Positions 3,779 through 57,184 of a DNA stretch of 64,000 nucleotides are shown here, in pieces. Source of the DNA: Eledone cirrhosa (lineage: Eukaryota); the NCBI GenBank assembly GCA_964016885.1, contig OZ024742.1:208692001-208756000 (forward strand), given 5' to 3'. Position numbers and translations under genes: made by a program. Position 1 is the stretch's first letter; each line of letters starts with the position of its first letter. The notes beneath the pieces were generated by a model. That model saw only the letters and a list, made by a program, of their open reading frames with translations, was not told where the DNA came from and did not search any database.

Positions 3779-3796
3779 AATAATAATAATAATAAT

Positions 3797-9354: not shown

Positions 9355-9376
9355 AATAATAATAATTATTATTATT

Positions 9377-10216: not shown

Positions 10217-10267
10217 TGGCCACAAGGGCTAACATGAAGAAAAACATTACAGACGGCAGAGAACGAC
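10215..10267 (-). mobile_element. Isolated Tx1 3'-UTR fragment
   Basis: ttggccacaagggctaacatgaagaaaaacattacagac closely matches 3807-3846. Confidence 0.7.
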
Positions 10268-17704: not shown

Positions 17705-17874
17705 GTTTTATTTTAAGCTGTAAATTATAATCAATGTGGTGTGTTAACTGACTTACCAATGTATACAGTGAGTTTATTTGCCCTAGGTGTCAGGAAGACA
17801 CTCGGCATACATCAGAAACGATAGTGATGGAAAAGAAAAACAACATCAATAATAATAATAACTGAGTATTTATA

Positions 17875-18214
17875 AAAACCTGGAAATGAAGTTTGGAAAA
17901 CTGTGGAAGTTGAGAACTAAAACAATACCACTGGTTGTAGGCGCTTTAGGAATAATACCTAAAGAATCTAATGATTACTTATTCCAAATCCCAGGGAACA
18001 CGCGTATAGAAGAAATACAAAAGATAGTACTAATGGGAACCTCCCATATACTAAGTAACTTTATGTCAATATAAATACATCACAAGTGTAAACACCTACA
18101 GAAACATGTGTGTGTGTGTGTGTTCTTTCTCGAAAATGGCGTACCTTATTGTCTCTTGGAGTCACTGGTTGTGACTTGGTGATAATACATATAAACATAA
18201 AGCAACGTGAAAGA
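17875..18214 (+). mobile_element. R4/Dong subfamily B 3' fragment followed by (AAT)n
   Basis: KLWKLRTKTIPLVVGALG..QKIVLMGTSHIL; 3'UTR like 43925-44064; (AAT)n 18215-18261. Confidence 0.85.
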
Positions 18215-18262
<48 letters not shown>

Positions 18263-23099: not shown

Positions 23100-23289
23100 A
23101 AGGGCGGTGGATTGGGAGTATCGATAGAGGGTCTGGCCCCATGATTTGAAGAATAAAGTTACATCCCTTTACGGTCTGAGTTCAAATCCCGCCGAGGTTA
23201 ACTTTTCCTTTTATCCTTACAGAGTCGATAAAATAAAGTATCAGTAATGTACTGGGATATTTGGTGGCCTCGTACCAAAAGTAGAAACG
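23100..23289 (+). mobile_element. Full-length tRNA-derived SINE with 15-bp TSD
   Basis: TSD ATTATTTAATGTATG at 23085-23099 and 23290-23304; B-box GAGTTCAAATCCC. Confidence 0.9.
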
Positions 23290-25741: not shown

Positions 25742-28700
25742 TAAAATAACAGATTAAAGTTTAAGCAAAGAATCGCTGCTTTCACCCTTAACGGGATCTT
25801 CTGAAACTAACAAAGTCAATCTGTAAACGCAGAACTGGATATTTCAAAAATCGTTGCAACCGGAGGAAGGCAGGAAGACGATACTTTGGTTCGTGGAAAC
25901 GTTCGCTGGCAAAGAACGGGAAAAAACGAGATATACGTCATTAATAGGAGCGGTGAAAAACAATTACGCGCAAAGACAGAACCACGCTTAGGTATAAAAG
26001 AGATCGTAGACTAATGTTCTCTTAGGTGGTGCATAGAGACGTTCTCTGGCAATGAACGAAAAAACGAAGATAATAAGTCATATGTGGAGCGTGGAGAACA
26101 ATAGTACGCAAAGACAAAACCACGTAAATGGTATAGCAGAAGTCGTAGACTAAAATTCTAACTAGGAGACCAAATGAATCTCCGCTACAGAGTTAATAAC
26201 AAAGTAAATAAATACAATACAGAAGTAATAGAAATAAATAAATGCATACACGCAAACAAATACGTACATACACAAGCATACGCAAAACCTTACCATAGGT
26301 ATACAACCACGCACATATAAATATGTGTGTGTGTGTGTATGCTTGTGTACAAATAAATAAATAATTATATAAACGTATATAAGTAAATAAATACGTATAT
26401 AACAAGCGTACACACATACCTACATATAAATACACGAATGTTCGGAGACGAAAGTCAACTAAAACAAGAAGTACACATATACACACACCCACCATACGTA
26501 CGAACCTGCATACTCACGCAGACGCAACACTCCCGTATACACATAGCCAAACCCTAAATACCAGAATATATAAAAATGATACGCCATAACAATCAAATAT
26601 ACGTACGAGAAGGTATACATACCTTCACAAAACATACGGGTAATATATACTTACCTATGCAAATAAGTAAAGGAATAAACAAAACATATACTTAGCTCCC
26701 ACATCAAGACGTAAAATATCCACGTATAGATCGTACTATCCGTTAGGGTATAACGTGGGGCTGTAATACAGGAAAGTATTGTGCAATTTATGTTTACAAG
26801 CTTAAATTGACTCAGATTTTTTGTTTCAGATGTGGTCTGTGGCGTAGAGTATTTCCAGGGCCTCAGCGGCGCAGAGGTCACATGGTCTTTTATTTCCGTT
26901 ATACGATCTAGCCCTAGCTAGGATCTCCTAGTGTAACTTATATTGGGTGTGGTTGTCTTTTAGACTCCAGATATAAGCTGAAAGTGACGTCATATTCCTT
27001 CTTAGAGGGTAAAGAAAAGAATGGGTATGCATGTAAAGACGCTGCTTGAAACTATTGGCGGTTAACCCTATGTAGGCCCTACGTGGGTGTTACAACCTTA
27101 CATTTGTAGACAATGTTACTAGAGAGGCATTTCCCGGATAGGGGGCAATCAGCCCGATTCCTACAATTACAGTTAGTACTAACTACAGGGTTGCACGTGT
27201 TCCTACAGCTAGGTAGTTTAGCTAAATTTGAAGCTGTGATGTTATGTGCAAGGTTAGGAGCCGTAGAGTAAGAAATTTTAATAGTATTTCTATTAAAAAT
27301 GTTACTATATTTATGTGTAGGGGGAAAATGCTTCGTAGTAAGGGAAAGAAAGATCTTAGCTAAAGGTGTGGCCACCTCCATATTTTATGGTGGGTTAAAC
27401 CAACAAATGCGACGGGATCTATTTCTTCTAGGTCTATTTTCGTACTCTGTATATGCTACCTTATCGACAAATCCACTTCGAGCAAGAGCTTCATTGTAAT
27501 AAGTGGAATGGTCGTTGAAAATGCGCTCGTTGATGGAAAGACGGGAAAGCCTCAAAGAAACATTTCTTACCAGGTTCTTGGTTATGCTGGCAGGATGGTT
27601 GGAATGCTTACTTATGTAACTAAGCGTATCATTCGGCTTTCTATACGGGTAATACAACCCATTCAATAAATTGAGGGTAACGTCGAGGTAATTAACGACC
27701 GAGAGATTGGTCTCAACCTGTATAGAGAGGTTGAAGCCTTTAAAGAAGGCTGTGAGTTCTTTTCTGAACCTGTCGCAAGCACGAGGGCCGCACTTAGTCA
27801 TGGTCAAAAGACCATCGTCACGGTACAAACCACCGCCCGCGTTGGGGAATTCGTCCTTGATAGAGAAAAGAAGGAAAAGGCCAATAAGATCAGTAACCTC
27901 CGCAGAGTCACTGGCGCCCATACTCACGTCGAATGGGGTACTATTGGATTTTTTAATCCAAATAGAGTCGTCGAAATTAATCACCGTCTTTCGGGCATTA
28001 AGGATGACATCAACTTCGAAATCCTTAACCACTGTGAGTGTTTTAGCGAAATTGATAGCTCTAAGGAGAAGTGGTAAAGTGATGGAGGAGTAGTAATTGT
28101 TGATGTCGAATTGGATAAAACGGCAATGTTCCTTGTTACATATGCCATTGAACCAATCAATCACCGCGAAAGAATTGTTCCACAGTGCGAGAGGGGTCAA
28201 ACTTCTAATTTCAGGTATAATTCTATCAAAAATCGTTTTACTAAGTCTACCTAAATCGGACTTCGTAGGGTTAATAAGCCGAATAGAGGGGTTGTTCGGA
28301 AAATTGGATTTGTGATCCTTCAGGGTAAAGTGGGGAGAAAAATGGTCCAGAGGTTCAGTCCGGTCCAGGATGTTGAGATCAGATGTGATTTTAAACCCAG
28401 CATCGTTGATTTCATTGATGACGCGCCGATTAGTTTTACGGTAATCCTTAGTTACAGCATTATGTAGTAGTTGATGGTAAGTACTGCGCTCCACTTGATA
28501 TAGGTTGCCAGTTTTGTCGGAATGGACGTGCACGGCGTTAGAATCCTTAATATAACGAATTCTATTCTTCAGGTCTTGCTGGAAGGAATTGCTCCTATTC
28601 CGAAATTTGATACTTCGAATGAGTTCCAAGACATCATTTTCGAAGGGTAGCAATGCTGGGTTCCACGGGGGGTTATTATAGGTTTTAAATCCAAATTTAT

Positions 28701-29186
28701 CCTGTTTGTTGTCTGCTTTTCGCGGATTATCGAAATAAAAGGCACACCAACGCAACCTTTTAATGAACGCGTCTGTTTTCTGTATCAGGAGTTTTAGGTA
28801 TGTTTTCCTGCTTGGTACGGGTATGTTCTTTGTAGAAATATTCAGATGTTGTTTCTGCATGATGAATATAAGTCAGTAGAGTGCTCAACCGAGGGAGCCA
28901 AATAGTAATAATAATAAAATTGAAGACTAAAATCCAAAGAGGGCTCGATAAGGATAAATATATATCAAATATATAAGAATCGTAGAGCAAATATTTATTA
29001 AAATAACAGATTAAAGTTTAAGCAAAGAATCGCTGCTTTCACCCTTAACGGGATCTTCTGAAACTAACAAAGTCAATCTGTAAACACAGAACTGGATATT
29101 TCAAAAAACGTTGCAACCGGAGGAAGACAGGAAGACGATACTTTGGTTCGTGGAAACGTTCGCTGGCAAAGAACGGGATAAAACGA
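25737..29186 (-). mobile_element. Penelope-like element (probably Hydra clade) with ~190-bp pseudo-LTR direct repeats
   Basis: Direct repeats 25737-25928 and 28991-29186; RT + CxCx5CP linker + GIY-YIG; 3' end abuts (TA)n 25679-25736. Confidence 0.85.
26790..28860 (-). pseudogene. PLE RT / GIY-YIG polyprotein, RT region open, endonuclease disrupted
   Basis: 491-aa ORF with HSDKTGN, RLINP, FDINNYYSSI, MGASDSAE, GLYRDDGL, WFNPP; after a stop: CNCRNRADCP, IVYKC, then frameshifted YIG..FKQR and CDLC. Confidence 0.85.
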
Positions 29187-29938: not shown

Positions 29939-30120
29939 TGTTTCTACTTTTGGCACAAGGCCAGCAATTACCCAGTACATTACTGGTACTTTATGTTATC
30001 GACCCCGTAAGGATGAAAGGCAAAGTTAACCTCAGCAGGATTTGAACTCTGAATGGAAAGGGACGTCACTACGCTGGAAAGCATGTCTGACCCTCTACCG
30101 ATACTGCCAATTCACCGCCC
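29939..30120 (-). mobile_element. Full-length tRNA-derived SINE with 18-bp TSD
   Basis: TSD TATGGATTAATAAATAAT at 29921-29938 and 30121-30138. Confidence 0.9.
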
Positions 30121-30632: not shown

Positions 30633-31421
30633 ATCTATATATCTAAAACAGAGAATGTCTGTCTGTCTGTCAGTCTGTCCGATCACTAAAACTCGAGAAC
30701 CACCCAACACATTGTTTTCAACCTTTACACATGTAATACTTAGGGTCCTGTGAGTGTTTTGAGCAAAAAATATTTCAAATTGTCAATGCCGTAGGGACCG
30801 CATTAGGCGATTTAGCGATCTCTCTGTCTGTCTTAGTCTTTCTCTTTTTAGATAGATACATAGATATAACGTTCCGCCCTTATAATATCTGTCTGTATGC
30901 CTGGCTGAATTGGCAGAATCAGTAGAGCGTCAGACGCCATGCTGTACGGTATAGAGTTATGGCCCTTTACGTTCTGAGTCCAAATCCCGCCCAGGTTAAC
31001 TTTGCCTTTCACCCTTACGAGGTCGATAAAATAAAGTACCAGTAATACACTGTGATAATTGCTGGCCTTGTGTCAAAAGTAGAAACAATTATGACGTAGC
31101 TGTGTGTGTATGTATATATATACATAGTGTGGGTGTAACATTTTTCGAAATATTTACTTCTCCGTTCACAGATTGATTTTTTTATTTTAGTTTCAGAAGA
31201 TACCGTTAAGGGTGAAAACAGCGATTCTTTGCTTAAACTTTAATCTGTTATTTATATATATATATATATATAATTATATATTCGTGTACAGATATGTTTG
31301 CAGACGCAATAGCAAAATATAAACAAACGTATTTATTTCACGAGGCCGTTAAGGATAAATATATTTCAAATATGTAAGAACCCTAGAGCAAATCCCGAGC
31401 AACGCTGGTCCATTCTGTTAG
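30633..31421 (+). mobile_element. Non-autonomous Helitron-like element with nested SINE and PLE pLTR pieces
   Basis: TCTATATAT..(GTCT)n 5' end; CCCGAGCAACGC subterminal motif like 57157-57172; 31140-31253 and 31349-31392 match PLE terminal sequence. Confidence 0.6.
30903..31087 (+). mobile_element. tRNA-derived SINE
   Basis: Same family; tail GGCCTTGTGTCAAAAGTAGAAACA-ATTAT. Confidence 0.85.
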
Positions 31422-33323: not shown

Positions 33324-34094
33324 CTAGCAGAGGTAACCGGCGTTGCTCAGGTATTAAATAGCAGTTATGTATACCATTTATGTCAATACTTCAGTGCTGC
33401 TTCGAAAACGATACTTTTACAAAATCATCGGCTTTTTCCCAAAGGGGCTTCCTTCCCCCAGGGTTCCGTTACTCAATATGTGATAATTCACATTTATCTG
33501 TAGAACAAACGTAGCCCATGTGTAAAGTTTTTTGAAAATCGGTTGAGAACTCCAAAAGTTGCGACGTTTTGTTGCATTGCACTGCAGTGCTTCAGTCGAC
33601 TCCAAGGAAGCAGTTGAAGGGGGTTATCTGCTGGGCGGCCCTATAATCAATATCTAGAAAAATGAAAGTACCCATGACCATCCGGAGTACATAAGTAACC
33701 TATGTCTTAAGTTTGGTAAAACTAATGGAGTTAGTGAGGGAATAGTGGTGGTAGCGATGATTCAGTGGTTGCTGTGGTGATGGGATAGTAGTACTATAGT
33801 GATGGTGTTGCTGCAGCCGTTGGTTTGTATTTGGCTAGATTTTTTCTGGTAGTAGTGATGGTGGCGGCTGCGGTGGTGGTGTTGGTGGTAAAATTATTTG
33901 TCTGTTGCTTGTAACCATTTTATTTTTTAACTATAACATTTCTGATACAAAATTAATTATTAAATATTGGAGCCCTATGCCATAATGTGATACGTTGTCA
34001 CTTCCATTTGTAATAAGAATTATTCTATCACAATTGTTTTAAATATGTAAAAAATCAAAAATCTAACACTCTATCCACCATGTGCGTAACTTCC
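33324..34094 (-). mobile_element. Non-autonomous Helitron-like repeat 'X'
   Basis: Minus-strand 3' end CCTGAGCAACGCCGG..CTAG|T; 5' part homologous to 8793-9810. Confidence 0.6.
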
Positions 34095-34127
34095 ATATTC
34101 TTCTTATTATTCTTATTATTATTATAT

Positions 34128-34856
34128 TTGCATTTATCTTGCTTTATATTCATACAATTTATCACCAAGTCACAACCAGTGACCTCAAGAGACTACAAGG
34201 TCCGCCATGTTCAAGAAAAAACACGCATACACACACATGCATCTTTAGGTGTTTAGACTTGTGATGTATTTATATTGACAGAATCTTCCTTAGTATATGG
34301 GCAGTTCCCATTAGTACTAACTTTTGTGTTTCTCCTATACGCGGGTTTCCAGGGATTTGCGATAAGTAATCATTAGACCCCTTAGGTATCATTCCTAGAG
34401 TACCTACAATCACTGGTATTGTTTCAGATCTCAATTTCCATATTTTTCCATTTTCTATCTCCAGGTCCTTACACTTGCTCAATTTTTCAAATGTTTTTAT
34501 AGATACATTCTTGTCTATTGGAACGGACATATCAATTAGCAGGCATACCCTCTTTTTAAAGGCCTTCAGTATTATATCAGGTATATTTGCATCTATTTTT
34601 CGGTCTGTTTGGATGCTAAAGTTCCACAAGATTGATGTGAGCTTTTTCAAGTACGGGAGGTGGTTGATGCTCCCACCAATTCTTTTGATGAGGCAGGGCA
34701 AAATGCTTACACATTATCCAATGTATGTGTTGTACAGCCCTGTCGTGCCTGTTTAGCTATTCGGTTGGAGCTATAGGACTGCACATTGAAATGATATGAT
34801 CAATGGTCTCTGGTTGTTTTTTACATACACGGCATAATGGGCTGCATCCATTTTTT
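34128..34856 (-). mobile_element. R4/Dong subfamily B, 5'-truncated
   Basis: ORF 34270-34701 PDIILK..LIDMSVP..EK..DL; CCHC remnant; (ATT)n on both sides. Confidence 0.9.
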
Positions 34857-34898
34857 GTTTTTTATTATTATTTATGATTATTATTATTATTATTACAG

Positions 34899-34936
34899 TT
34901 GCATTTATCTTGCTATATGTTCATACGAGTTATCAC
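34899..34936 (-). mobile_element. 38-bp extreme 3' end of Dong subfamily B
   Basis: ttgcatttatcttgctatatgttcatacgagttatcac matches about 43924-43961; between two (ATT)n tracts. Confidence 0.75.
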
Positions 34937-35174
34937 TTATTATTATTATTATTATTATTATTGACGAAAGTGGATGTACGTTTTTTGAAGCTCCGTGAGT
35001 AAGCAATTTTTTGAGGATTAATTGTAGAGAATTGTTTATTTTTTGTACCGCTGAAGCATTATAAGACATTAATTTGTATCCTGTGAAGGAATAACTCATA
35101 ATATTTGGGCCTTTTGGCCCAAATATTTGAACTTTATTTTGAAAAAAAATAATAATTTTTTTTCTCAAAAAAAC

Positions 35175-37084
35175 ATGGCGGAGCCACGCCCCCTAGAGGC
35201 GGGTCTGCTGTCGTGCAACGGCGACTTGAGCGTTGAGAGGAGAGGTGAGGCGAGGAGCGCCACCAGCACGAATGTGAGCAGCGACAGTGCCAGCACCAAC
35301 GGGCCGAGCGGCGCGGAAGGTGGTAACAGCGACAACACCAACACCAACAAGCCGAACAGCGCAGAAGGTGGTAATAGCGAGAGCACCAACAAAACGAACA
35401 GCACAGAGAGTAATAGTAGCGACAGCAGCAGCACCAACAAGGCCAACAGCACAGAAGGTAACCACGACGCAGGGGAGAACAACAACAGCAATAGCAGCAG
35501 CAACACCAACAAGAACAACAACAGTGACAACACCAACAAGAACACTTTCGCTGCTGTGGCAGCGGCTAAAAGGAGACCATGCTACAGCATCGACTTAACC
35601 AACAGAGAGGAAAAGTTGGCCCAGGCCTGGAAAATCATAAATCAAGAGCAGACCTGGGCAAACTTAACTGTCCCGGCAGAAGCCACTGAGGCAGTGGAAA
35701 AAAGAACGGTGCATTTCAGATGCATCTCAGTAGAGACAAAGAGGGCAGCGATAATCGCCCAAGCTGACATAGAAGCCGCACTGAAATACATCAGAGAGGA
35801 CACAGACTTCATAGAGAGGGGCAGGCAATACGGCACCGTTTCGGTGCTGTTCAAGTCTGAAGCCCTCGCTGTGAAGCATTCAATGACCCCTTGCAAAACC
35901 AGCAAGGTCATAATGTACCCCTCCCACATGGGAAAACGAATAGCACGTGTGCGCATTCCCAGGATTCCACCAGGACTTGATATGTGGTGGCTCCTGGGCT
36001 GCGTAATCGTGGAAGGAACGGATACAGTCCCGGTAGAGGCAACGAGAACTGCCAGGGACGACTGGTCCGGGGTTGATCTGGAGATACTGCTCCAAATCAG
36101 ACCCGAAAACGTAAAAACAATCCCGGACCACATCCGCCTCCAAAACGGGAGGGTGTTGCATATAATGACTGAGGGCAAAAGGCCGCATTGTTTCCTTTGT
36201 GGGGAAACGACACACTTGCGAGCCTTCTGCCCTCAACTGCCGAAAAGCGCAAGGGGTCGAAAGATTCCACTGCTGGCGACGCCGGGACAAGGACCACCAG
36301 CAACACCGTCAACAATGGAACCACCAAAATTGCACACCCAGGGGGGAAACGAGGAAAGCTCTCCCATTCCCCCCCCCCCCAAATACACACACGAACAAGA
36401 ACATAAACACTCACTCAGACACAAACACGCTCACAGCCACAGACCCCTCATCCTCCAGCAGTGAAGATGAGGGAAAACCAAAGTCCCCCAAAATACAAAA
36501 AACAAAACACAAAAAAAAAAGAAATCCACAAAGCACAAACACCCCCACAAAAAAAAAATACACACACCACCCACACAAACATTTTCCCCACAGCATCACC
36601 AACACAACCACCAAAATCCCCCAAACGCAAACAAGCTAAACAGACACAAGAACAAATAGACACACAAACATCAGAAACTACAGACACCCCACCCACAACA
36701 AACGCAGACACAATAGAAACAACACTAACAAAGCTATCACCACCACAATCACACGAACAAATAAAACCCGAGCAACAAAACATTAAAAACTTCGTGCTTG
36801 CCAGAAGGGCCAACAAGGAATTGATGGCCCATGTAGCACGAAGCACAAACATCGAAAAAGACGGGGAAACATTTGAAGCGAGCACATTTCGCGTACCAGA
36901 TAATTTGCTTCTGATGCGAATGTCGCTCGCTTCATACAAAGAAATTCGAAAGAGCTTTCCTCGGGATGTGGGAACCCCGAACGTAAAACCCACGTCAAGA
37001 CTATTAAAGGGGTTCCCAAAAGAAACCCCACAAACCATGGAGGTCGAACCACCCGACCTTCACAAGACCCCGGAAGGTAAGTAA
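35175..37084 (+). CDS. Tx1 ORF1 (gag-like, zinc knuckle) with two homopolymer frameshifts
   Basis: ATG 35175; CFLCGETTHLRAFC (CX2CX4HX4C); frame changes near the C run 36369-36380 and the A run 36549-36558. Confidence 0.75.
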
Positions 37085-37113
37085 ACCTTTCCTCTCCCAT
37101 TCATCCTGCCAGC

Positions 37114-40100
37114 ATGGCCATAAGAGTAGGAAGTTTAAATGTTCGTGGCCTGGGGTCGCCCTGGAAGCAAGGTCACTTGCTCAACGACCTCAGGTCACTA
37201 GGAATGGATGTAATTGCCATCAGCGAGACCAGAATTTCCGACACACGCGCACTGGCGCCGATTTTCGACGATTATCAGATCTTTGCATCTGTTAGTCGGC
37301 CGGGAATGGGAGGTGGAGTGGCTGTGCTGTTTAGGAAATGTCTGGATCTCGAGGTAAGGTCAATCTTCCGGGATCCTGACGGAAAGTTGGTGGTCCTGGA
37401 CGTGAGCAATAGCGAAGGTGGTGCCTTTAGACTGGTGGCCGTCTACGCCCCTACTGGGGCCGGTCGGCCGGACTTCTTTAGGCGCCTGGAAAACTTTCTG
37501 CTTACGTCTCGCCCTTTACTGTTAATAGGGGATTGGAATGGCATCTTAGAAGCACGCTGGGATTGTGTGGGAGTATCTGATAGGAGCGGGGGGTGCAAAA
37601 GCCTCAAGTACCTGATCAGCCAGTTTCAACTGTCTGACAGGTACCGACTAGATTTCCCTAATGCGCCAGTATGGACCTGGACCAATCGCATAGGGTCATC
37701 TAGATCGTACATAGATAGGATTTTCATTAGGAAAAGAGATAGAAATAGTGTAGGATGTCCACATTTTAAAACGGTTGCCTATTCAGATCACAAGCTTGTG
37801 ATCTGTATGGTCGACCTAGATAAGACACGTAGGTTAGGACCTAGCTACTGGAAGCTAAACATGTCGTTTCCGGCACGTAAAGCTTACAGGGACCGGGTCA
37901 ACAACCTAGTTAAGCAAAAGTTGACAGGGGGGGTTGTCAACAACAGGTGGTGGGGGGCACTCAAAAGAGAGATTAGAGCAACCTCGATAGGATTTAGCAA
38001 AGAAGTAGCAATAGAGAAAAATAGAAAGGAGGAGGGGCTGATAGCTAAGTTAGACGAGGCTATTTGTAGTGGCATTGCAACAGACGTGCTAGCGGCGAGA
38101 ATGGCACTAGACCATTTCTTCAATGCGAAACACGAAGGTTGCATTGTCAGAGCTAAGGCGCGTGCTCTGAGGAACGAGGGAACCAAAGCTGCCCGATGGG
38201 CTCGCTTTGCAGAGACGCAGCGTGGAAATAAAACCACAATTCGGTCTTTGACGGATCGAGATGGACACGAACTGAGCGATTCCAAGCAGATGTGTGAGGC
38301 CTTTCGCCAGCACTTTGCTCGATTGTTCGGGAGGATGGGTGAGTCGGAGACGGCGGCGGACTTCAGTCCCTACCTCGACGGCTTGCCACGCCTCTCGACG
38401 GCCGACGCTGAGCGCTGCGAAGAGCCGATAACATCAGCCGAAATTCAGGACGCCCTTGTCGGCTGCTCGAGTCGCAAGTCACCCGGTTTGGATGGTCTGC
38501 CCTACGAGCTTTACGTAAATATGCCAGACTTGTTCTCCGATCTCCTCGAAGCGCTCTACTGCAACTGGCAGCAGAACGGGAGCATTCCCAGTTCTGTGAG
38601 CCGTGGCGTAGTGACGCTGATAAGGAAAGACGAGAACAAGAGGGACACACTAGATAATTTCAGGCCCATAACCCTGCTCAACACAGAGTTTAAGATTTTG
38701 GCCAAGGTGTTAGCGAAAAGGTTGGCGCTTGTCGTCAAAGATTTGGTTGGGGAGGCGCAAACTTGCGCAATCCCGACCAGGTCCATACACGACAACCTCC
38801 ACCTCATGCGATACATCATAGAGAGGGTTGGGTGCAAACCTGGCTTCGGTGGGGCTCTGATCAATTTAGATCAATCGAAAGCATTCGATAGGGTCGACCA
38901 TCGGTACTTGGAGGCTGTCCTCGAGGCGGCTGGCTTCGGCCCCGTCTTCAGAAGCTGGATCGCTGCAATGTACAGCGGCATCCGCTCGGTGGTCAAAGTT
39001 AATGGCCACCTCTCGGAACCGTTTCAGATCTCTCGATCGGTCCGTCAAGGGTGCCCTCTCTCCTCACTTCTGTACGTATTGACTCTTGAGCCTCTACTGC
39101 GGAAGCTGGAGTTGTTGCAGGGCATCCCGCTCGAACCGGGACGTAGAAAGGCTGCGTCCGCTTATGCGGACGACATCACCGTGATGGTGTCGGACACCTC
39201 GGAAATCGAGGTGATCCGCACCCATTTGGAGGAATATGAAAGGTTGACGGGAGCAAAACTTAACCCGGAAAAGTTGGTGGGCTTGCAGCTCGGCACCTGG
39301 AGAGGCAAGTCCATGCCGTCCAACAGCGTCGTTGGGCGCTGGACAGACGGACCGGTAAAGTTGCTCGGGGTTTGGTTCGGACCAGACCTCCAGGTGGATA
39401 AGAATTGGGACGAGGTGACGAGCAGGATAGCCAACCTCACCCAGAAATGGGCTGAGAGAAAGCTATCACTGAAAGGGCGGGCGGAGGTGGCGAACGCGTA
39501 CATCGCGTCCGTCATCTACTACCGCCTGACCGTCGTGCCTTGCCCCCGTCCACGCCTCGCCAATTTGGAACGGCTCCTTTTCAAATTTTTGTGGAGGGGA
39601 CGGGTCCCGTTGGTGAGGCGGTCCATCTGCTGCCAGCACCCTCTTCGTGGAGGGCTGGGCATGCCGTGGCTAATGATGCGCAGACATGCGCTGAGGCTGC
39701 GACATCTCCAGATATTTTGCCTAAACGGTGAACAGGTGTGGTCGCCGTTTGTTAGACGGGCCTTTCCGCAGCTCATCTCTTTGACTGAGCTGCAGTCCTG
39801 GGTCAAGAAGAGACCGAGACTGGGCGACTGGCATCTGGAATGTTGCCAGGCGCTCACTGCACTCTGCAAGGTGGGCAATGCGGTCAGTGGAACTTCCACT
39901 CAAGATTTCTATAGAGGATTAGTGGAGGGCAAGTGCGATGACGTACTAGGAGAGGCTCTGGGCGTCAACGAAGTAGAACTGACCAGTATGTTCCGGAGGA
40001 CTTTCGAGCCGGGGACGATGGATAACTTCCAGAAATCCCTCGCTTGGCAGTGCTACCGGGGGGCGCTGCCGGTTCGGGATAAACTCTACAGGCACGGAAG

Positions 40101-40533
40101 TGCTGTCAGACGAACCTGCCCGAGATGCACGCAGAGCGACGAAACCGTTCTGCACGCACTCGTCCAGTGTCCGTGCATTGCTGACTTGTGGGGTTATGTC
40201 GAACAGCTATTGTCGCGTGTAGAACGGATCCGGCTATCGTCCGAGTCCATAGTGAAGATTGACCCGCCGCCTTCTTTTGGTCAGGAAGGGCAGGCAATTT
40301 TCCTCTGCCTGGTGGCAGTAGCGAAAGAGGTTGCATGGTGGACCAGGTTGAAAGGACTGAAGACAGACACTTTTCTCTTCGGCCAATCCCTCATCAACTT
40401 CTTCAAGTTTCACTTGGAAAGGAAGGTGAGGGTGGAGAGAGAAGTGCTGCCCCCCAGTACATTTACTGAAAGGTGGGTGAATGTGGCGAGAATGGCCCGC
40501 GTGAGTGGGCCTACTCTGATCATGCGCCTGTAG
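37114..40533 (+). CDS. Tx1 ORF2: AP endonuclease, reverse transcriptase, CCHC zinc finger (1139 aa, uninterrupted)
   Basis: NVRGL, ISET, VYAP, GDWN, SDH; KSPGLDG, FRPITLLN, LDQSKAFDRV, QGCPLS, YADD; CPRCTQSDETVLHALVQC. Confidence 0.95.
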   Translation: MAIRVGSLNVRGLGSPWKQGHLLNDLRSLGMDVIAISETRISDTRALAPIFDDYQIFASVSRPGMGGGVAVLFRKCLDLEVRSIFRDPDGKLVVLDVSNSEGGAFRLVAVYAPTGAGRPDFFRRLENFLLTSRPLLLIGDWNGILEARWDCVGVSDRSGGCKSLKYLISQFQLSDRYRLDFPNAPVWTWTNRIGSSRSYIDRIFIRKRDRNSVGCPHFKTVAYSDHKLVICMVDLDKTRRLGPSYWKLNMSFPARKAYRDRVNNLVKQKLTGGVVNNRWWGALKREIRATSIGFSKEVAIEKNRKEEGLIAKLDEAICSGIATDVLAARMALDHFFNAKHEGCIVRAKARALRNEGTKAARWARFAETQRGNKTTIRSLTDRDGHELSDSKQMCEAFRQHFARLFGRMGESETAADFSPYLDGLPRLSTADAERCEEPITSAEIQDALVGCSSRKSPGLDGLPYELYVNMPDLFSDLLEALYCNWQQNGSIPSSVSRGVVTLIRKDENKRDTLDNFRPITLLNTEFKILAKVLAKRLALVVKDLVGEAQTCAIPTRSIHDNLHLMRYIIERVGCKPGFGGALINLDQSKAFDRVDHRYLEAVLEAAGFGPVFRSWIAAMYSGIRSVVKVNGHLSEPFQISRSVRQGCPLSSLLYVLTLEPLLRKLELLQGIPLEPGRRKAASAYADDITVMVSDTSEIEVIRTHLEEYERLTGAKLNPEKLVGLQLGTWRGKSMPSNSVVGRWTDGPVKLLGVWFGPDLQVDKNWDEVTSRIANLTQKWAERKLSLKGRAEVANAYIASVIYYRLTVVPCPRPRLANLERLLFKFLWRGRVPLVRRSICCQHPLRGGLGMPWLMMRRHALRLRHLQIFCLNGEQVWSPFVRRAFPQLISLTELQSWVKKRPRLGDWHLECCQALTALCKVGNAVSGTSTQDFYRGLVEGKCDDVLGEALGVNEVELTSMFRRTFEPGTMDNFQKSLAWQCYRGALPVRDKLYRHGSAVRRTCPRCTQSDETVLHALVQCPCIADLWGYVEQLLSRVERIRLSSESIVKIDPPPSFGQEGQAIFLCLVAVAKEVAWWTRLKGLKTDTFLFGQSLINFFKFHLERKVRVEREVLPPSTFTERWVNVARMARVSGPTLIMRL

Positions 40534-40828
40534 GCTGGTGAATTCGAGAAGGAGAGGGGTGCCCTTCCCGGGTGCCCTAGGAGCGTCGGGTGGCTCAGGA
40601 CTGGTGGGGTGCTTGAGTCAACCCTGGGTGGTGATCCCTCTTATTGGGGAACTTTCATTGTTGTATTTTTATTGTTATTTTGTTTTTGTTTTTTTGTTAT
40701 TTATACTTACTCGATCTCTATGTAAACCCCCACTGTCCCTGTCTATTGTGTTGTCCCCTATATGTCGGCCCTTGTGGCCAATAAATGAAATCATTATTAT
40801 TATTATTATTATTATTATTGTTGTTATT

Positions 40829-42874
40829 CCTTGATCTCAGTCATTGATGTTGGTTAACTGGAAAGTCCGTTGGAATGAATATCAAGCCAATACCTGCAGC
40901 CTCAGATATTCAGGACGTATCAGAGGGTTCTTGCTGTTCCAAGCAAGCATGCCTTTTGAAGCGTTCCAAAAAGCGTGAAAGGGCCGATTTTCTTTAACCA
41001 TCCCTGGAAACTTTTGGAGATAGTCCCCAGTGCGCCTATGACAATCGGGATCACTTTGACTTCATGGCAGTTCCAAATCCTTTTCACCTCCCACTTTAGG
41101 TCCTGGTATCGGTTAATTTTCTCCCTCTCCTTCTCTTGCACTCTCGTGTCGAAAGGGCAGGCCACATCCACAATCAGACACGATCTTTTTTCTTTGTCCA
41201 CAACCACCAGGTCAGGTCTATTGTGTTCCAGTTTTTTGTCCGTCTGTATCCTAAAATCCCACAGCACCTTCACCTGATTGCTCTCCATCACCGCCTCTGG
41301 CCTATGCTCATACCATTTCTCAGAATGTGGTAAATTGTTTACTTTGCACAGGTGCCAGTGGATCACCCTGCCCATCACATCGTGTCTCCAGCCCTTATAG
41401 TGGGTCTGGGCTAGGGGTTTACACTCGGACACAACGTGTGCCACAGTCTCCTCTCTCTCTCTCCACAGATCCTGCACAGTGGGCTAGCCTCCTCCTTGTA
41501 AATATGGTGCTTCAACCACTTCGTTTTGAGGGCCTGCTCCAGCGCAGCCATTAGCATTCCTTCTGTAGCCTTTTTGAGGTCTCCTCTTCTCAACCAGTTC
41601 CATGTCTGTGGATCTCTAAATTCAGTTTTCTCAAAGAAGGTACTATGAAGGGATTTTCCCTTAAGGCTGCTCTTCCTCCTTGATGTTATTTCCTCCTTGG
41701 ACATCCCCTGGCCTACTGTCCCCTCCTTCAGTACAGTTCTGAGCATTGGCTCCTTACTATAGGTCACGTATTTGTATAGGTTGTTTTTCTCCATCTGAAC
41801 ACAGTCCTCTATGCTGATAAGACCTCTTCCACCCTCAGATCTCCTTAGGTAGAGTCTATCGACATCACTCCTCTTGTGGAACATGTTGTAGATAGTCAAT
41901 AGCTTCCTAGTCTTCCTATCCATTTCTTTTTGTTCAGCAACATTCCATCTCAGAATTCCCGCACTGTACCTAATAATAGACACAGCTCGGGAATTTACTG
42001 CGCTTATGGCATTTCTGCTGTTCAGATGTGACTTCAATACGCTCCTTACTCTCCGAATGTATTCAGTTCTTAACAATTTCTTCATTTTTTTGTTCTTTAT
42101 GCCATCAGCCTCCAGAACGCCCAAATACTTGTATCCTTCCTCAGAGTCAATTTCCTTTATCATCTCACCTGTTGGTATCTGGATCCCGTTACTTCTGCTC
42201 AACCTACCCCTCCTCATCACAATGACTCCACATTTACTAATACCAAACTGCATACATATATCACTGCTGAAAATACGGACAGTGTCAACAAGCACATCCA
42301 ACTCCTTCTCAATTTTCCCGAAGAGCTTAAGATCGTCCACGAAGAGGAGGTGATTGATGGTAAGCTCTCCCTTTCCCAACTTGTATCCTGCTCTCACTTT
42401 TCGCAGCATAATGGTCAAGGGCATCAGGGCAAGGACAAACAACAGAGGGGACAGGCTATCTCCCTGGAAGATACCTCTCTTGATCTTCACGCTTCCCAAG
42501 GATACTCCAGTTGATGTCAACTCTGTCTCCCAGGACCCCATACTCCTGCCCAGCAACTGTCTGATGTTATCTGCCACCCTGAAGATCTCCAGGCTTTTGG
42601 CGATCCAAGAATGAGGCACCATGTCAAATGCCTTTGTGTAGTCTATCCATCCCATGGCAAGATCAGTGTGTCTCCTCCTGCAATTCCCCATTACCATCTT
42701 ATCAATAAGTAACTGGTCCTTTGTACCACGTGTCTTCTTTCGGCATCCTTTCTGTTCGTCCGGTAACAAGTTGTTAGTGTGGAGGTGATGGTAGATTTCC
42801 TCAGACACAATGCTCGTCAACAGTTTCCACATTACGGACAGACATGTGATAGGTCTATAGTTGGTAGTTGGTAA

Positions 42875-42875
<1 letters not shown>
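40829..42875 (-). mobile_element. R4/Dong subfamily A, 5'-truncated, young
   Basis: Long open RT ([18 protein letters not shown]), CCHC and RPD..VD..EK endonuclease; one frameshift in a (TC)n run near 41455. Confidence 0.93.
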
Positions 42876-42908
<33 letters not shown>

Positions 42909-42914
42909 GTTATT

Positions 42915-43906
42915 CCTTGAATCTCAGTCATTGATGTTGGTTAACTGGAAAGTCCGTTGGAATGAATATCAAGCCACTACCTGCAGCCTCAGATATTCAG
43001 GACGTATCGGAGGGTTCTTGCTGTTCCCAGCAAGCATGCCTTTTGAAGCGTTCCAAAAAGCGTGAAGGGGCCGATTTTCTTTAACCATCCCTGGAAACTT
43101 TTGGAGATAGTCCCCAGTGCGCCTATGACAATCGGGATCACTTTGACTTCATGGCAGTTCCAAATCCTTTTCACCTCCCACTTTAGGTCCTGGTATCGGT
43201 TAATTTTCTCCCTCTCCTTCTCTTGCACTCTCGTGTCGAAAGGGCAGGCCACCACCACAATCAGACACGATCTTTTTTCTTTGTCCACAACCACCAGGTC
43301 AGGTCTATTGTGTTCCAGTTTTTTGTCCGTCTGTATCCTAAAATCCCACAGCACCTTCACCTGATTGTTCTCCATCACCGCCTCTGGCCTATGCTCATCC
43401 CATTTCTCAGAATGTGGTAAATTGTTTAATTTGCACAGGTGCCAGTGGATCACCCTGCCCATCACATCGTGTCTCCAGCCCTTATAGTGGGTCTGGGCTA
43501 GGTGTTTACACTCGGACACAATGTGAGCCACAGTCTCCTCTCTCTCTCCACAGATCCTGCACAGTGGGCTAGCCTCCTCCTTGTAAATATGGTGCTTCAA
43601 CCACTTCGTTTTGAGGGCCTGCTCCTGCGCAGCCATTAGCATTCCTTCTGTAGCCTTTTTGAGGTCTCCTCTTCTCAACCAGTTCCATGTCTGTGGATCT
43701 CTAAATTCAGTTTTCTCAAAGAAGGTACTATGAAGGGATTTTCCCTTAAGGCTGCTCTTCCTCCTTGATGTTATTTCCTCCTTGGACATCCCCTGGCCTA
43801 CTGTCCCCTCCTTCAGTACAGTTCTGAGCATTGGCTCCTTACTATAGGTCACGTATTTGTATAGGTTGTTTTTTCTCCATCCGAACACAGTCCTCTATGC
43901 TGATAA
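42915..43906 (-). mobile_element. R4/Dong subfamily A, shorter 5'-truncated copy nearly identical to its neighbour
   Basis: ORF 42989-43888 with intact CCHC + RLE. Confidence 0.93.
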
Positions 43907-43924
43907 ATTATTATTATTATTATT

Positions 43925-44787
43925 TGCATTTATCTTGCTTTATGTTTATACGAGTTATCACCAAGTCACAACCAGTGACCTCAAGAGACAACAAGGTCCG
44001 CCATGTTCAAGAAAGAACACACATATTCACACATGCATCCTTAGTGTTTAGACTTGTGATGTACTTATATTGACAGGATCTTCCTTAGTATATGGGCAGT
44101 TCCCATTAGTACTATCTTTTGTATTTCTCCTATACGCGGGTTTCCTGGGATTTGCGATAAGTAGTCGTTAGACCCCTTAGGTATCATTCCCAGAGCGCCT
44201 ACAACCACTGGTATTGTTTTAGTTCTCAATTTCCACATTTTTCCAATTTCTATCTCCAGGTCCTTATACTTGCTCAATTTTTCAAATGTTTTTATAGATA
44301 CATTCTTGTCTATTGGAACAGACATATCAATTAGCAGGCATACCCTCCTTTGAAAGTCCTTCAATATTATATCAGGTCTATTTGCATCTATTTTTCGGTC
44401 TCTTTGGATTCTAAAGTTCCACAAGATTGAGATGTGATCTTTTTCAAGTATGGGAGGTGGTTGATGCTCCCACCAATTCTTTTGATGGGGCAGGTCAAAA
44501 TGCTTACACATTATCCAATGTATGTATTGTGCAGCTCTGTCATGCCTGTTTAGGTATTCGGTTGGAGCTATAGGACTGCACATTGAAATTATATGGTCAA
44601 TGGTCTCTGGTTGTTTTTTGCATACACGGCATAGTGGGCTGCACCCATTTTTTATTATGTTGGCTTGGTAATTTTTTGTTGGCAGACACTGATCTTGTGC
44701 GGATATAATCAGTCCTTCAGTCTCCGATTTCAGTCCAGAGGATGCCAACCACTGATGGGTTAAAGTTTTGTCAACATCAGGATTGTT

Positions 44788-44790
<3 letters not shown>
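43925..44790 (-). mobile_element. R4/Dong subfamily B, 5'-truncated
   Basis: ORF 44065-44748 CRVCKKQPETIDHIISMC, RH, RPDII, LID, EK..Y.DL. Confidence 0.93.
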
Positions 44791-44828
<38 letters not shown>

Positions 44829-44876
44829 TGTTGTTGTTGTTGTTGTTGTTGTTATTATTATTAATATTATTATTAC
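44791..44876. repeat. (ATT)n(GTT)n(ATT)n compound microsatellite
   Basis: Seen directly. Confidence 0.9.
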
Positions 44877-45509
44877 TACATATATGTTTATATACATTTT
44901 TTCTTCTAACTTAAATTTTATACCTAATTGTGTATGGTTGACGATATATTTAATCGATTTCCACGCGCTATTGAAATGCTGGATACATATTCTGTAGCTA
45001 TTGATCGCGAATAGATGGCTGTCGCTTATTTATCTATTATTTCTTCATAGGTACCTTTTAATCTTATAGCCTTGTTTAATTGTTTTTTTGTGTAGTTGAT
45101 TATGCTGATTGGGAGTGGAAATGGTGTATATATCTTATCAAATGATTCTATGGACATACTTTATAGTATATATATATATGAATATATATTTTTTGTGTAT
45201 GTGATGGTTGTTTTCCGAAACCTCAGTATGCAGGTTGGAGGACTCAATAAGGGCGCAGGCTGGTTTGTTTGCTCGAGAGAGATGTAAAATAAAAAGTGTA
45301 AGTCAACATGTAAAAGTTTGTTTCGTTTATCCAAATGTATTGCTATACATATTTTAGTGACAGCCATTATTGGCTATGACTTCATCACGCGGTAAGAATT
45401 TATGCAGAAAAAACAGGATAACATGATGTTGTAATGGGTTTTACCTTGTTAATTCATCGATATGTCCAGCTCCTGGGGATGTTGTTAGTCCTCAATGGAC
45501 GAAATTCTT

Positions 45510-50392: not shown

Positions 50393-53300
50393 TCATCATC
50401 ATCATTATCTATAAAAGGCAGATTGTTGTTGTGTGTGTTTGCATGTTCCATGTTCATAGATTTGCACAATTTTAAACCAATTCGACTCAACATCTGTAAC
50501 AATGTTGTAAATCGTTTAACTTAAGTCACCGACTGTTTATTTTCTTCCAACTCACCCTCGATTATGGAAATAATCGATAAAACTAAATACATGACGCTTT
50601 ACCCCTCTAATACTATTTGATATCCTCTCTCTACTCCCATTAAAAATCGATAAAACTACATACATGCTGCAACTTTCTCTTATATACACTTACAAACTTC
50701 CTTTAGGAACGCAGGCGAAAGAAGAGAGAAAGAAATGAAGGAGAGAGAGAGAGAGAAAAAAAAGAAGTGAGTGAAGTGAGCGAGAGAGTGAGAGACAGTG
50801 AGAGAGAACATTTGTTTTTGAGTGTGGAACGGTCAAACATTCTTTTACTTCAATGACAACGAAGATAACTTATTACATTTCATACCAAATAACAATTATT
50901 CCAAAGCAACAGATAAATTTATTCAACAACAAAAAAAATAGCGAAAAATCTTTTTTTTTTAAATCCCAACGAACGTGGAAGAAAGAAGAGAGAAACACAC
51001 AAACACACTCAAACACATGCTCAGACAGACCCAAACACACATACATAAACAAAAAAGAAACTACCAATTGTATCAGTTTATTTACTATACACAATAATAT
51101 CCTCTATGATGTCACTAAACCTGCTAGAAACAGCAGCTAACTCTCCCCCATATCACACCACTCACTACTGTCTTAAATTTAGAAAACACACATTAGACAA
51201 CCATCCCTAATAAATAGACAGGATATCAAACCGATTCGACTAAATGCCGGTAAGAATGTTGTAAATGGTCTAACTTAAGTCAACAAATATTTATTTTTTT
51301 CCAACTCACCCCCAATTACATTTTGGGTATAACATATTTAAACGTTTATTGATTGAAAACAGAAAAACATAGGGATTTTTGGTCAAACAACTTCAACTTG
51401 CAGACAGAAGCGCGCTTTCACCAAACTGTGAGTTATTTATTTGCCGTTCGTTCTCCCCTTTTTTTCCCCTACGGAACGCCTCCAGTTTTCAGCCTTATAC
51501 TTTCAAAGGCAATTTTGCTGTAGAAGTAACTTTTACCCTTTGTTTTTGACATAGAATGCCATCTAAAATGAGAAGTCGCCTCGGTCGCCATACCGCGTCA
51601 GCGGCGCCGCAGAGGGCGATTACAGCAAACGGGTCCCTCGAGGAAACTGCTTTAAGACTTTCACTGAGCGCCTTACGTTCAGCGTAATGCAGAGCTGCTG
51701 AAAGTTTCCAACAGCGCACCGCACGCCTAGCCAAGCTGGCTTCATACGACGCCTCGAGACGTGCTGCGATGTGCGATTCAGAGCGGGCGATACGTCATTA
51801 AAAAGTCACCGCTTCTACTGTTGCTTCCGGGGGGCCCGGAACAAAGGTCGACTCGCCTGGCTAGAAACGCTGTTGCTACTGCTGCTTCCAGGGCTTCAGA
51901 GGGTCCGCAAAAATGGTCGACTCGCCTGACTAGAAACGTTGCTGCTACTGCTGCTTTCAGGGCTTCAGAGGACTCAGAACAAAGGGCGACTCGACTGACT
52001 AGAAACGGTGCGGTTACTGCTGCTTCCAGGGCTTCGGAAGGTTTGGAACGGCGGACGACTCGCCTTGCTAGGAACGCTTCGGCTATGACTGCTTCCTTGG
52101 CTTCTGAAGATGCAGACGGGCGGTCCATTAGGATTGCAAGGGTGGCTTCTGCTACTGCTACGAGAGCTTCCCACGACCCACAGGAGCAACGTTCTATTTG
52201 GAGCGGAACAGTCGACGACGAGAAGCTGCCCGCGGTGTGACGAGCCCATACTGGATCCTACGGGCTTTCAAGTATGAGCCCAACGTTAACTACTCGATGC
52301 GCGCCGCCATAAATATAAGGTAAATGCGCTTCAATTGCCAATTCTGCAATGCTAAATAGTGGGCTGGGGAGCCACCTACAATGTGATGCTTAAACGGTAA
52401 GGTCAGCTTGCTCCCTCTTGGGGAACCGCCAGAGCCTTTGAAGGAACTACTTACTGGTTGTACCTCAAGGTCATCCAAATTCCTTCAACTCATCAGGAAG
52501 TACAATTGTGCGTTTCAAATGACTTCTTTCGGGGCTAACGTAGTCAGAGAAAGTGGTTTGATGCCTACTTTCAAGGTCCAGGGTCAGGTGTACCATCTTA
52601 TTGGGTCGCTCCAGCCACTTCAAAATTGCAAGCCTTCGTTCCTTCAAATTTACTTTATTTCTAACTACAGTAGGAAAGTTGATGCGCGGTTCGGCGTTAT
52701 TCCACCACCTGCAAACACTGACTCTGACACTTCTGACAGGGACGTGCTGCTCAGTCTTCAAGACATGCTTCATGAGCACAACAGTTACATTCGCAGTTTC
52801 GAATACGCTTTGGAAACAGCCCCTTCACCAAACTTTACCATTGTCATCGATGCTGACAAAAGACCTTCTGGGGAGCACGCACGCCATAATAACGCTCCTT
52901 CGTGCAATGAAGTGACCGTAGTTCTCCATGGTGAACAGCACAATAAGCGAGACATAGTTCTTCAAAGCCGTGACAGTGGTCTTCGACGTATTAATGAGTC
53001 GCATCGTTCATACGACGCCCTGCAGTATCCCCTTCTTTTTGCATACGGAGAAGACGGGTACCATTTCGGCATTCCTCAGCGCAAACCAAACGAGCCCACT
53101 GCTGTGACATCTAAAACTGTTTCATGTATGGCTTTATACTCATACCGCTTCATGACGAAGCCTAAAGATTTTAGCACCCAGCACAGGTCACGGGAACTGT
53201 TTCACCAGTTTGCAGTTGACATGGCTGCAAAGATGGAGTCGGAGAGACTGTGCTTCATAAAATTGAATCAGAAGCAGCTGCGCTCAGACTCCTACATCCA

Positions 53301-56300: not shown

Positions 56301-57184
56301 GATGCTTTCGTGTTCGTTCCGCAAGGCAAAACAAAACAACATTGTCTACAAGGAGGTTTTATAGAATTACCTCGCTTCCTAATTTTATAACTTTTTTATT
56401 TTTTTATTTTTTGCCTTTTCGTGAGTAATTTCTAAGTAGGTTAACCTTCACTGCAGTGCACTAGACACTCCCCACCATCGGCCGAACAAAGGCTTATTCT
56501 CGCGGCGTTACAAAGCTTCATTACAAATCCGACCCTACTCAAATACCAGCTGTTGCCCCTCACCAATCCCCGTTTGGTGGGCCTCGGAGGACCGTGGACA
56601 GGTTACTATTTCACCTCCGTACGACTCTCAAAGGGTGAACAGTGATTTAATGACGGGATTTACATTTTTAGGCGGTTCCTGCAATTACTTCACACTTCAC
56701 CAACACCTGGCCTCCGCTCAGCTCTATTTCCTTCCCTCCGTTGGCACAGCACCAGGCTCATCTTCTACGTCCGACGTACATGATGCACCAACCATACAAT
56801 GACCCCTCTTCCTCTTTTTTTGTTCTCATAATTCGACAATGTTTTCAGGCACCTGTTTGCGGTTCCTTCATTCCGCGACCCTCCTCCGTTAAAACATGTC
56901 ATGTAGAACAACTCCATCGCAGCTCTGTTGTTCGGCTGGCATCGTCTACGCGCGTGTAGCGCAAGTACTGTGAAACAATAAATTTCAACACTTCTTTGCA
57001 CAGAGATAATATCCATATGCGAAACTACAATTGTCACTGCTGGCGCAGCTCCTACTTTGGAAGTCCAGGTCTGCAATTCATTCACCCAGTGCCTGGCTGA
57101 CGTAAAAGTGCTGCCATAAAATGGATGGTGCAACCTAATATTGGTAACTTACAAATCCCGAGCAACGCCGGGCTTTAATGCTAG
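50393..57184 (+). mobile_element. Helitron H3, both termini present, Rep/helicase ORF degraded
   Basis: A|TC start; 3' hairpin CCCGAGCAACGCCGGG then CTAG|T at 57181-57185; SYDALQYPLLF, EWQKRGLPHAH, GGRTAHS, DE, GDFRQTLPV, FAMSINKAQGQ, HGQLYVGCSRV. Confidence 0.92.
51556..56390 (+). pseudogene. Helitron RepHel (STPR-like repeats, HUH Rep, PIF1 helicase)
   Basis: Collinear ORF fragments with many stops and frameshifts. Confidence 0.85.

Follow-up and report, generated by a model that had tools for sequence, protein, structure and literature searches.

A candidate Tx1 LINE-SINE partnership in Eledone cirrhosa with a common 3' tail and a common ATTAT target

An abundant SINE of Eledone cirrhosa and a group of LINEs with Tx1 traits that insert at ATT sites have in common their 3' tail, the junction with the target, the strand, target duplications that begin at that junction and the absence of poly(A). 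ATT-targeting Tx1 elements are very likely the partner group of the SINE, and comparison of the sequences suggests that their ORF2 protein probably copied the SINE in trans by recognizing a hairpin in the tail. The SINE likely captured its 3' end from a Tx1 ancestor, and most of its copies likely go back to older ATT-targeting families (A', B and E) rather than to the burst of family A now under way. The partnership was first proposed from one stretch of DNA of 64,000 nt, here called the window (contig OZ024742.1, positions 208,692,001 to 208,756,000), whose features are given in Table 1.

Table 1. Mobile elements and their parts in the window (positions counted from the first letter of the window)
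Feature	Position	Strand	Remarks
Full-length young LINE with Tx1 traits, family A	34963-40792	+	5.83 kb; without poly(A)
ORF1 of this LINE	35175-37084	+	CCHC knuckle; frameshift at a poly-C tract in the window copy
ORF2 of this LINE	37114-40533	+	1139 aa; APE endonuclease, reverse transcriptase, C-terminal zf-RVT
Predicted Tx1 3' hairpin GGCC-CTTGT-GGCC	40767-40779	+	GGCC 40767-40770, loop CTTGT 40771-40775, GGCC 40776-40779; covariation, 13 family or subfamily representatives
Tx1 terminus AATAAATGAAATC	40780-40792	+	AATAAA and terminal GAAATC; element ends at 40792
(ATT)8, 5' side of Tx1	34939-34962	+	target repeat or duplication
(ATT)9, 3' side of Tx1	40793-40819	+	
Older decayed Tx1, family E	3797-6514	-	ATT-targeting, differs from A; tail at 3797-3821 reads AGCC-CTGGT-GGCC AATAAG GAAATC
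Tx1 tail fragment, family E, about 50 nt	10216-10267	-	joined directly to a truncated SINE
SINE copy	9187-9355	-	head to head with the copy at 9377
SINE copy	9377-9560	+	loop variant
SINE copy	10021-10091	-	5'-truncated
SINE copy	10113-10218	-	5'-truncated
SINE, full-length	23102-23289	+	15-nt TSD, 23085-23099/23290-23304
SINE, full-length	29939-30120	-	182 nt; 18-nt TSD, 30121-30138/29921-29938
A-box-like motif of this SINE	30093-30110	-	
B-box-like motif of this SINE	30038-30049	-	
UCON3-type core of this SINE	about 29982-30033	-	
Hairpin TGGC-CTTGT-GCCA of this SINE	29951-29963	-	
SINE copy	30906-31087	+	stem variant
R4/Dong-type	40820-44910	-	
R4/Dong-type	34000-34936	-	
R4/Dong-type	1785-3790	+	
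R4/Dong-type	17857-18248	+	
Helitron piece	52387-56390	+	Helitron pieces: Helitron_like_N, PIF1 helicase
Helitron piece	15271-16876		
Helitron piece	18848-19399		
Endonuclease fragment of another LINE	12137-13104	+	Exo_endo_phos_2
495-aa frame	27385-28872	-	no Pfam match

The LINE in the window appears to be a member of the L1 superfamily with Tx1 traits, and the name Tx1 rests on these traits, not on a reference phylogeny, as no named Tx1 reference was among the homologues, the ESM Atlas returned generic names and the tree was built from local families and unnamed outgroups. ORF2 has the APE endonuclease and L1-type reverse transcriptase of the Tx1 clade (Pfam matches PF03372, PF00078 and PF13966), and its best solved relative is human L1 ORF2p (E 1.6e-56, with R2 proteins at 1e-22). 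A CCHC zinc knuckle in ORF1 is likewise a feature of the Tx1 clade, and the pattern C-x2-C-x4-H-x4-C can be read in ORF1 here; Pfam assigned no family to the ORF1 pieces. In six of eight other family A copies examined, ORF1 is open (620-636 aa). Target preference, for which the threshold in the literature is more than 20% of flanks (PMC4494074), is evident in 17 of 19 sampled Tx1-type ends that are followed by ATTAT or TATCT. Among distant relatives on metagenome contigs, the CTTGT hairpin tail was absent by eye from six 3' regions. Contigs of one expression run (X1) cover the tail and not the remainder of the 3' UTR, a weak hint of expression.

Family A is young. All 20 fetched copies, which were picked by score and hence are the youngest of the family, are 5.78-5.83 kb long with a common start base, and all 20 have ATT runs on both sides and lack poly(A); the last 316 nt are 100% identical in the 40 matches listed. 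Divergence from the family majority is 0.2-0.6%, as estimated from the two to six unbiased copies available for each Tx1 family. On the same kind of sample the older ATT-targeting families differ by 2.4-4.7% (B), 1.2-5.6% (A') and about 10% pairwise (E).

The family in the window is part of a larger radiation. Exact matches to a degenerate pattern of the form hairpin (CTTGT loop)-AATAAA-GAAAnn number at least 19,779 in the 3.0-Gb genome, and in most of the 69 tails that were read the ORF2 C-terminus lies 200-300 nt upstream. Among these 69, tails of families A, A', B and E are followed by (ATT)n, those of C, D and F by (TATC)n, while all G tails adjoin a single fixed site that is not a repeat; a further ATT family of older age, H, turned up once. 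The TATC families and G form one clade (94/100) in the tree of local families and unnamed outgroups. The endonuclease hairpin loop, which has been tied to target choice (PMC1950540), reads NRNG in TATC families (two copies) versus NRIG in ATT families (six copies). TATC families account for 6 of the 19 Tx1 ends in our sample, and their ages overlap that of the SINE. Family G (loci L216, L225-L230 and L245) is also young, at 0-1.4% divergence; its fixed flanking sequence is not a microsatellite, and one tandem array has six tails about 6 kb apart (G000:C1, about 4.229-4.259 Mb).

The SINE is 182-215 nt long, with A- and B-box-like motifs in its head (by eye) and, immediately after the head, a core in which 36 of 49 positions match UCON3 when compared by eye with its row in the supplement to PMC7245038. 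A Meta domain was considered for the core and dropped, as by eye it is unlike the BivaMeta-SINE1 and BivaMD-SINE1 rows. ARAGORN found no tRNA gene in the window and Rfam no match to one SINE copy. Exact SINE tails number 117,888 genome-wide. In an unbiased sample of 99 evenly spaced 10-kb stretches (990 kb, mostly from the largest contigs) there were 161 SINE core matches and 114 scored 3' ends; 50 core matches lacked a scored end and are decayed tails, truncations or members of a sister family. Scaled up from 114 ends per 0.99 Mb, the SINE would number roughly 345,000 copies. Poly(A) is absent from the profile of the 3' flanks of these 114 copies, and the SINE lacks the AATAAA that the LINE tail carries, as expected of a Pol III transcript. 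Copies of the short subfamily are 2.8-13.7% from the majority (median 6.6, n=58) and those of the long subfamily have a median of 13.6% (n=14), with the youngest SINE clusters at about 2-3%. Since the SINE thus spans 2-14% versus 0.2-0.6% for family A, the older ATT families are the likelier drivers.

The preliminary description of the window held up in its main observations and needs correction in several details. The young Tx1 does end in GGCC-CTTGT-GGCC-AATAAATGAAATC followed by (ATT)n (40767-40819), and the two TSDs reported, 15 nt at 23085/23290 and 18 nt at 29921/30121, are real and begin ATTATT in the SINE sense. The seven SINE 3' ends that had been read as one tail before ATTATT, three of them as slight variants (9187, 9560, 10021, 10113, 23289, 29939 and 31087), lie at the positions given and show small deviations in three copies; the one at 9187 reads GCCA-ACAGTA, and ATTAAT follows the one at 10021. 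For the old Tx1 and the fragment near 10215, which had been said to keep the same hairpin, only 3 bp pair and there is an outer A-C mismatch; the loop of the old Tx1 is CTGGT, not CTTGT. As to age, the SINE seems to overlap with families A', B and E, judged from two to six unbiased copies of each, and it predates family A (<1%). Accordingly, of the claim that an (ATT)n-specific Tx1 drives the SINE, the Tx1 group is retained, but the target is ATTAT and the copy in the window is too young to have driven most of the SINE copies.

The insertion sites of the SINE define this target. Based on the genome-wide search, ATTAT follows 96,796 of the 117,888 exact SINE tails (82%), so that the bias and polarity seen in the window hold throughout the genome; in the unbiased sample it follows 90 of 114 SINE ends, with a background of 0.29% of positions (990 kb). 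Among 111 assessable copies, an adjacent duplication of at least 7 nt was found in 60 (control 16.6) and of at least 10 nt in 54, compared to 6.2 in a flank-swap control; in the other 51 of the 111 no TSD was found. The duplications have a median length of 13 nt (range 7-27) and begin exactly at the 3' junction. The upstream TSD copy begins with ATTAT in 41 of 54 cases, and at 15 variant sites the same variant was present on both sides in 7, upstream only in 6 and downstream only in 2. Because most upstream copies start with ATTAT and some variants are matched on both sides, ATTAT is genomic target DNA. There is some sign that the RNA supplies the first base of the site. Immediately before the SINE site, C is over-represented (31%, background 15%) and G under-represented (2%, background 9%).

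The SINE target is ATTAT and not an (ATT)n array. At TSD-defined SINE sites (ATT)3 was present in 8 of 54, versus 10% of background ATTAT sites, while three or more ATT units follow 20 of 25 Tx1 ends, and the median ATT run is 5 units at Tx1 ends versus 2 at SINE ends. Truncated copies of ATT-family Tx1 elements, some of whose loci had been picked as SINE-containing, were informative in 17 rows once two mis-delimited ones had been removed; in about 9 of these 17 a duplication starts at the junction, and for about half of the truncated copies no TSD was found. Several such duplications lie exactly at a SINE 3' junction and some at non-array sites (L232, L236), and the SINE and Tx1 TSD lengths overlap, in line with the original proposal. 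TATCT, the site of the other Tx1 group, follows none of the 117,888 exact SINE tails, and a search with HATCT gave four matches, none with T. A sister SINE that has the same head and core with another tail lacks ATTAT after all eight ends listed; therefore, the target travels with the tail. The sister tail is longer and ends in CATA-like repeats (L144, L143, L083, L093, L151, L008, L397, L303).

Other aspects of the SINE junctions are worth recording. At 5' junctions (L002, L005, L008, L021, L019) the SINE is often preceded by a few additional bases copied from part of the TSD, which suggests primer slippage during second-strand joining. In tandem SINE arrays (L028, L123, L134, L119, L023) one TSD lies between neighbors, each insertion recreating its own target. 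The SINEs at 9187-9560 surround a palindromic AAT/ATT spacer and are possibly two opposite-strand insertions or an inverted duplication. Two lines of argument were dropped. Nesting order was set aside as a clock, as insertion is possible at either TSD copy and the order is ambiguous. The Tx1-SINE junction at 10216 was likewise not used as proof of an amplified chimera or of template switching, because it occurs once in the genome and is also explicable by a microhomology join with target deletion.

To find which LINE best matches the SINE end, 20 LINE ends drawn from about 1.9 Mb (eight Tx1, five CR1-type, one I/Nimb-type, two RTE, one unassigned and three R4/Dong, with clades labeled by eye from reverse transcriptase motifs) were scored over 28 nt against the two commonest SINE ends. 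Tx1 ends hold the top seven ranks of 20, as had been predicted: F scored 36, C and G 30, D 27, A and E 25 and A' 24, with B alone lower at 18, versus 19 for the best of the 12 non-Tx1 ends. Masked random 28-mers reached at least 24 in 6 of 20,000 cases, at least 30 in none and at least 18 in 303; the score of 25 between family A and the SINE was reached by 2 of 20,000. The tails of family A and the SINE match at 20 of 30 columns, and the shared 3' end, made up of the predicted hairpin with its CTTGT loop, a spacer and GAAA, is about 25 nt, shorter than the 35-61 bp that bivalve SINE-LINE pairs share (PMC11481361). The most SINE-like tails belong to TATC-targeting families and yet no exact SINE tail lies at TATCT; thus more than the hairpin is needed to determine the partner.

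The hairpin in this tail is weak, with a predicted stem of 3-4 bp. When nine Tx1 and four SINE ends (13 rows) are aligned without gaps, ten tail columns are invariant, stem pairing is 86.5% versus 71% in shuffled rows, and covariation is 0.397 versus 0.144 when shuffled and at most 0.154 when slid. Both sides change in three of the four stem pairs, with G-C/A-U in B, U-A in D and G, and C-G to G-C in the SINE, which supports the original view that the stems differ yet still pair. These compensatory cells trace to about three independent events in related sequences, from which the structure itself was also derived. The closing C-G pair never varies, and in 6 of 13 rows the outer position is unpaired. 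Shuffled sequences fold as well as the 61-nt ends (z 0.08 for Tx1-A and -0.46 for one SINE), and folding energy was dropped as non-significant, so the case for the hairpin rests on covariation, not stability.

Several other explanations of these data were considered. ATT-targeting Tx1 elements may have driven the SINE without reading the hairpin, which would then be a leftover of tail capture, with GAAAnn and AUUAU pairing sufficient for priming. Such a scenario would fit a hairpin that is weak and often broken at its outer pair, and whose likeness is no guide to the Tx1 group that has the target in common with the SINE. We regard it as rather unlikely given the compensatory changes in three pairs, among them the C-G to G-C swap between SINE and Tx1, the retention of loop and closing pair across Tx1 families that are only about 60-70% alike over their last 650 nt, and the SINE subfamilies, in which the spacer varies while the hairpin stays constant. 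It is improbable that an unsampled LINE, of low copy number or extinct, has a closer tail and that the likeness to Tx1 reflects a shared or convergent 3' signal. The 20 ends compared came from about 1.9 Mb, a sample that might miss a family if it is rare or extinct, and the SINE stem differs at one pair from every Tx1 stem seen. However, in the genome-wide matches to two patterns of the SINE stem plus a poly(A) signal (52 and 6, respectively), all 36 loci read were SINEs, with no separate LINE carrying the SINE's own stem plus AATAAA among them; a relaxed scan of the 990 kb likewise returned only SINE and Tx1 ends as clear matches.

The remaining candidates are LINEs of other clades. A young CR1-type family has the same terminal (ATT)n and polarity as well as its own 3' hairpin, 6,071 exact tails and intact 957-aa frames. 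That it drives the SINE is nonetheless very improbable, as its tail score of 8 equals the null mean and its 5' flanks, unlike those of the SINE, are without ATTAT; of 30 copies, 24 had a resolved 5' end, with a clear duplication in 1, a doubtful one in 4 and none in 19. Given these flanks and the few duplications, the (ATT)n of the CR1-type family looks intrinsic. R4/Dong and RTE elements are both abundant, and Dong elements lie in the same microsatellite arrays, which would be consistent with one of them as the driver and with a Tx1 tail likeness that arose by chance in an AT-rich genome. This is the least probable reading of all and can be nearly dismissed: Dong ends are followed by AATAA or AACAA in 9 of 9 cases, the opposite strand, RTE ends are followed by GAT repeats, and the tail scores are between 1 and 13 (RTE 13 and 5; R4/Dong 9, 9 and 1). 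Copying by ATT-targeting Tx1 elements through recognition of the hairpin probably accounts best for the data.

Under this preferred scenario, the SINE would be copied by target-primed reverse transcription. The endonuclease would nick the bottom strand at 5'-ATAAT/N-3' (the slash marks the cut), the freed DNA end would prime synthesis at the GAAAnn of the RNA, and the duplication would result from another nick some 13 nt downstream. ORF2 may bind the hairpin through its loop and closing C-G, which are nearly invariant, leaving the stem letters free, much as L2 proteins bind a 3' stem-loop (PMC4176376). Transcription of both elements would likely continue into the flank, so that each RNA ends in an AUUAU of its own able to pair with the nicked primer. 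In the LINE the AATAAA lies 6-7 nt from the element end. This spacing is shorter than the usual cleavage distance, and the LINE RNA would therefore carry flanking AUU repeats. A SINE RNA made by Pol III would carry AUUAU from its own duplication; the median distance from the SINE to the next T4 is 122 nt. Read-through pairing would explain why ATT runs are longer at Tx1 ends, why the SINE prefers a 5-nt site and why it is missing from TATC sites, although a difference in endonuclease and RNA binding between Tx1 groups would explain the last of these equally well. We tentatively suggest, as a possibility somewhat short of even, that this is the first stringent, hairpin-recognizing pair of the L1 superfamily in animals, in which a captured tail is combined with an ATTAT target and pairing between read-through RNA and nicked DNA serves as a second code. 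If so, the ATT and TATC families would be a natural swap experiment that separates RNA recognition from target priming.

Tail-sharing SINE-LINE pairs are familiar for L2, CR1 and RTE. Surveys of bivalves give CR1, CR1-Zenon, L2 and Nimb as partners, Tx1 going unmentioned in their partner accounts (PMC11481361, PMC4824008). In a comparison that covered sources other than Repbase and the 1994 octopus SINE paper (OK, OR1, OR2), we found no report of a Tx1-SINE pair with a shared tail for animals. The initial remark that no description of the pairing was known therefore holds for a pair with a shared tail but not for a Tx1-driven SINE as such, which was proposed for SINEU and Tx1-Mar of crocodilians (Kojima 2015, PMC4494074). 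There, as here, a SINE was linked to Tx1 by target and orientation, with overlapping ages in the crocodilians and a tentative overlap here, SINEU-3 has tandem insertions with a TSD between them, and Tx1 families prefer different sites (PMC4494074). Unlike the SINE here, SINEU has a U1/U2 snRNA head and poly(A), and that account gives no LINE with its 3' end; its copies are put at about 10,000 with a target preference of 13-90%, versus more than 117,000 and a 5-nt target here (PMC4494074). Membership in SINEU is not indicated, as Rfam gave no match (one copy) and poly(A) was absent (114 flanks). Insertion of Tx1 elements in simple repeats, with related families differing in target, is known from Kibi in (TC)n, Koshi in (TTC)n and the crocodilian (TTCC)n and (TTTC)n elements (PMC4494074); the families here insert instead at (ATT)n, at (TATC)n or, in one case, at a non-repeat site.

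The UnaL2/UnaSINE and ZfL2-1/ZfL2-2 systems (Hayashi 2014, PMC4176376) resemble the present one in a shared short stem-loop with a specific loop and a pairing stem. They differ in belonging to the L2 clade, in their microsatellite tails and in that binding was established by experiment, whereas the present case is built on sequence comparison, concerns the L1 superfamily and has a sequence-specific target with duplications of 7-27 nt. Closer in lineage are ZmSINE2/3 with LINE1-1_ZM and SINEX-3_CR with L1-1_CR, L1-clade pairs of plants and algae with a conserved hairpin and loop, compensatory stem changes and tRNA SINEs (Ohshima 2013, PMC3747384); the pair here is instead from an animal, belongs to a Tx1-like target-specific lineage and is without poly(A). 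Such shared-hairpin pairs of the L1 clade come from maize, sorghum and Chlamydomonas, and these three plant and algal SINEs support the proposal that the L1 superfamily was ancestrally stringent and relaxed to poly(A) in mammals and plants (PMC3747384). A covarying hairpin shared by a SINE and an animal Tx1-type LINE whose ORFs are intact and were recently active would add the missing metazoan case. In its core, and perhaps in its head, the SINE resembles the UCON3-domain SINEs (Kojima 2020, PMC7245038), which have a tRNA-type head and a UCON3 core and exchange tails between families. Their published tails are RTE-type, CR1-type or unassigned; the main text of that paper is without the terms Tx1 and octopus, and its supplements are without the latter (PMC7245038). 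The set of LINEs here (Tx1, Dong-R4, RTE and CR1) resembles those of octopus reports (PMC13282606, PMC8967140).

The pairing would name a likely engine for a dominant SINE in a setting where SINEs are a major genome component and their partners are unassigned in the literature at hand. It would also explain why SINEs, Tx1 and Dong elements gather at ATT sites, a point that matters for the interpretation of repeat hotspots and of ATT microsatellite markers. In the window, R4/Dong elements of two families share the ATT/AAT arrays with both Tx1 copies, to which they lie tail to tail on the other strand, and this arrangement recurs elsewhere (L039, L043, L045 and others). In the CR1-type (ATT)n family the last 113 nt are tandemly duplicated in three long copies (L307, L312, L313), and tails of this type supply ATTAT sites that were then used by SINEs (L388, L389, L405).
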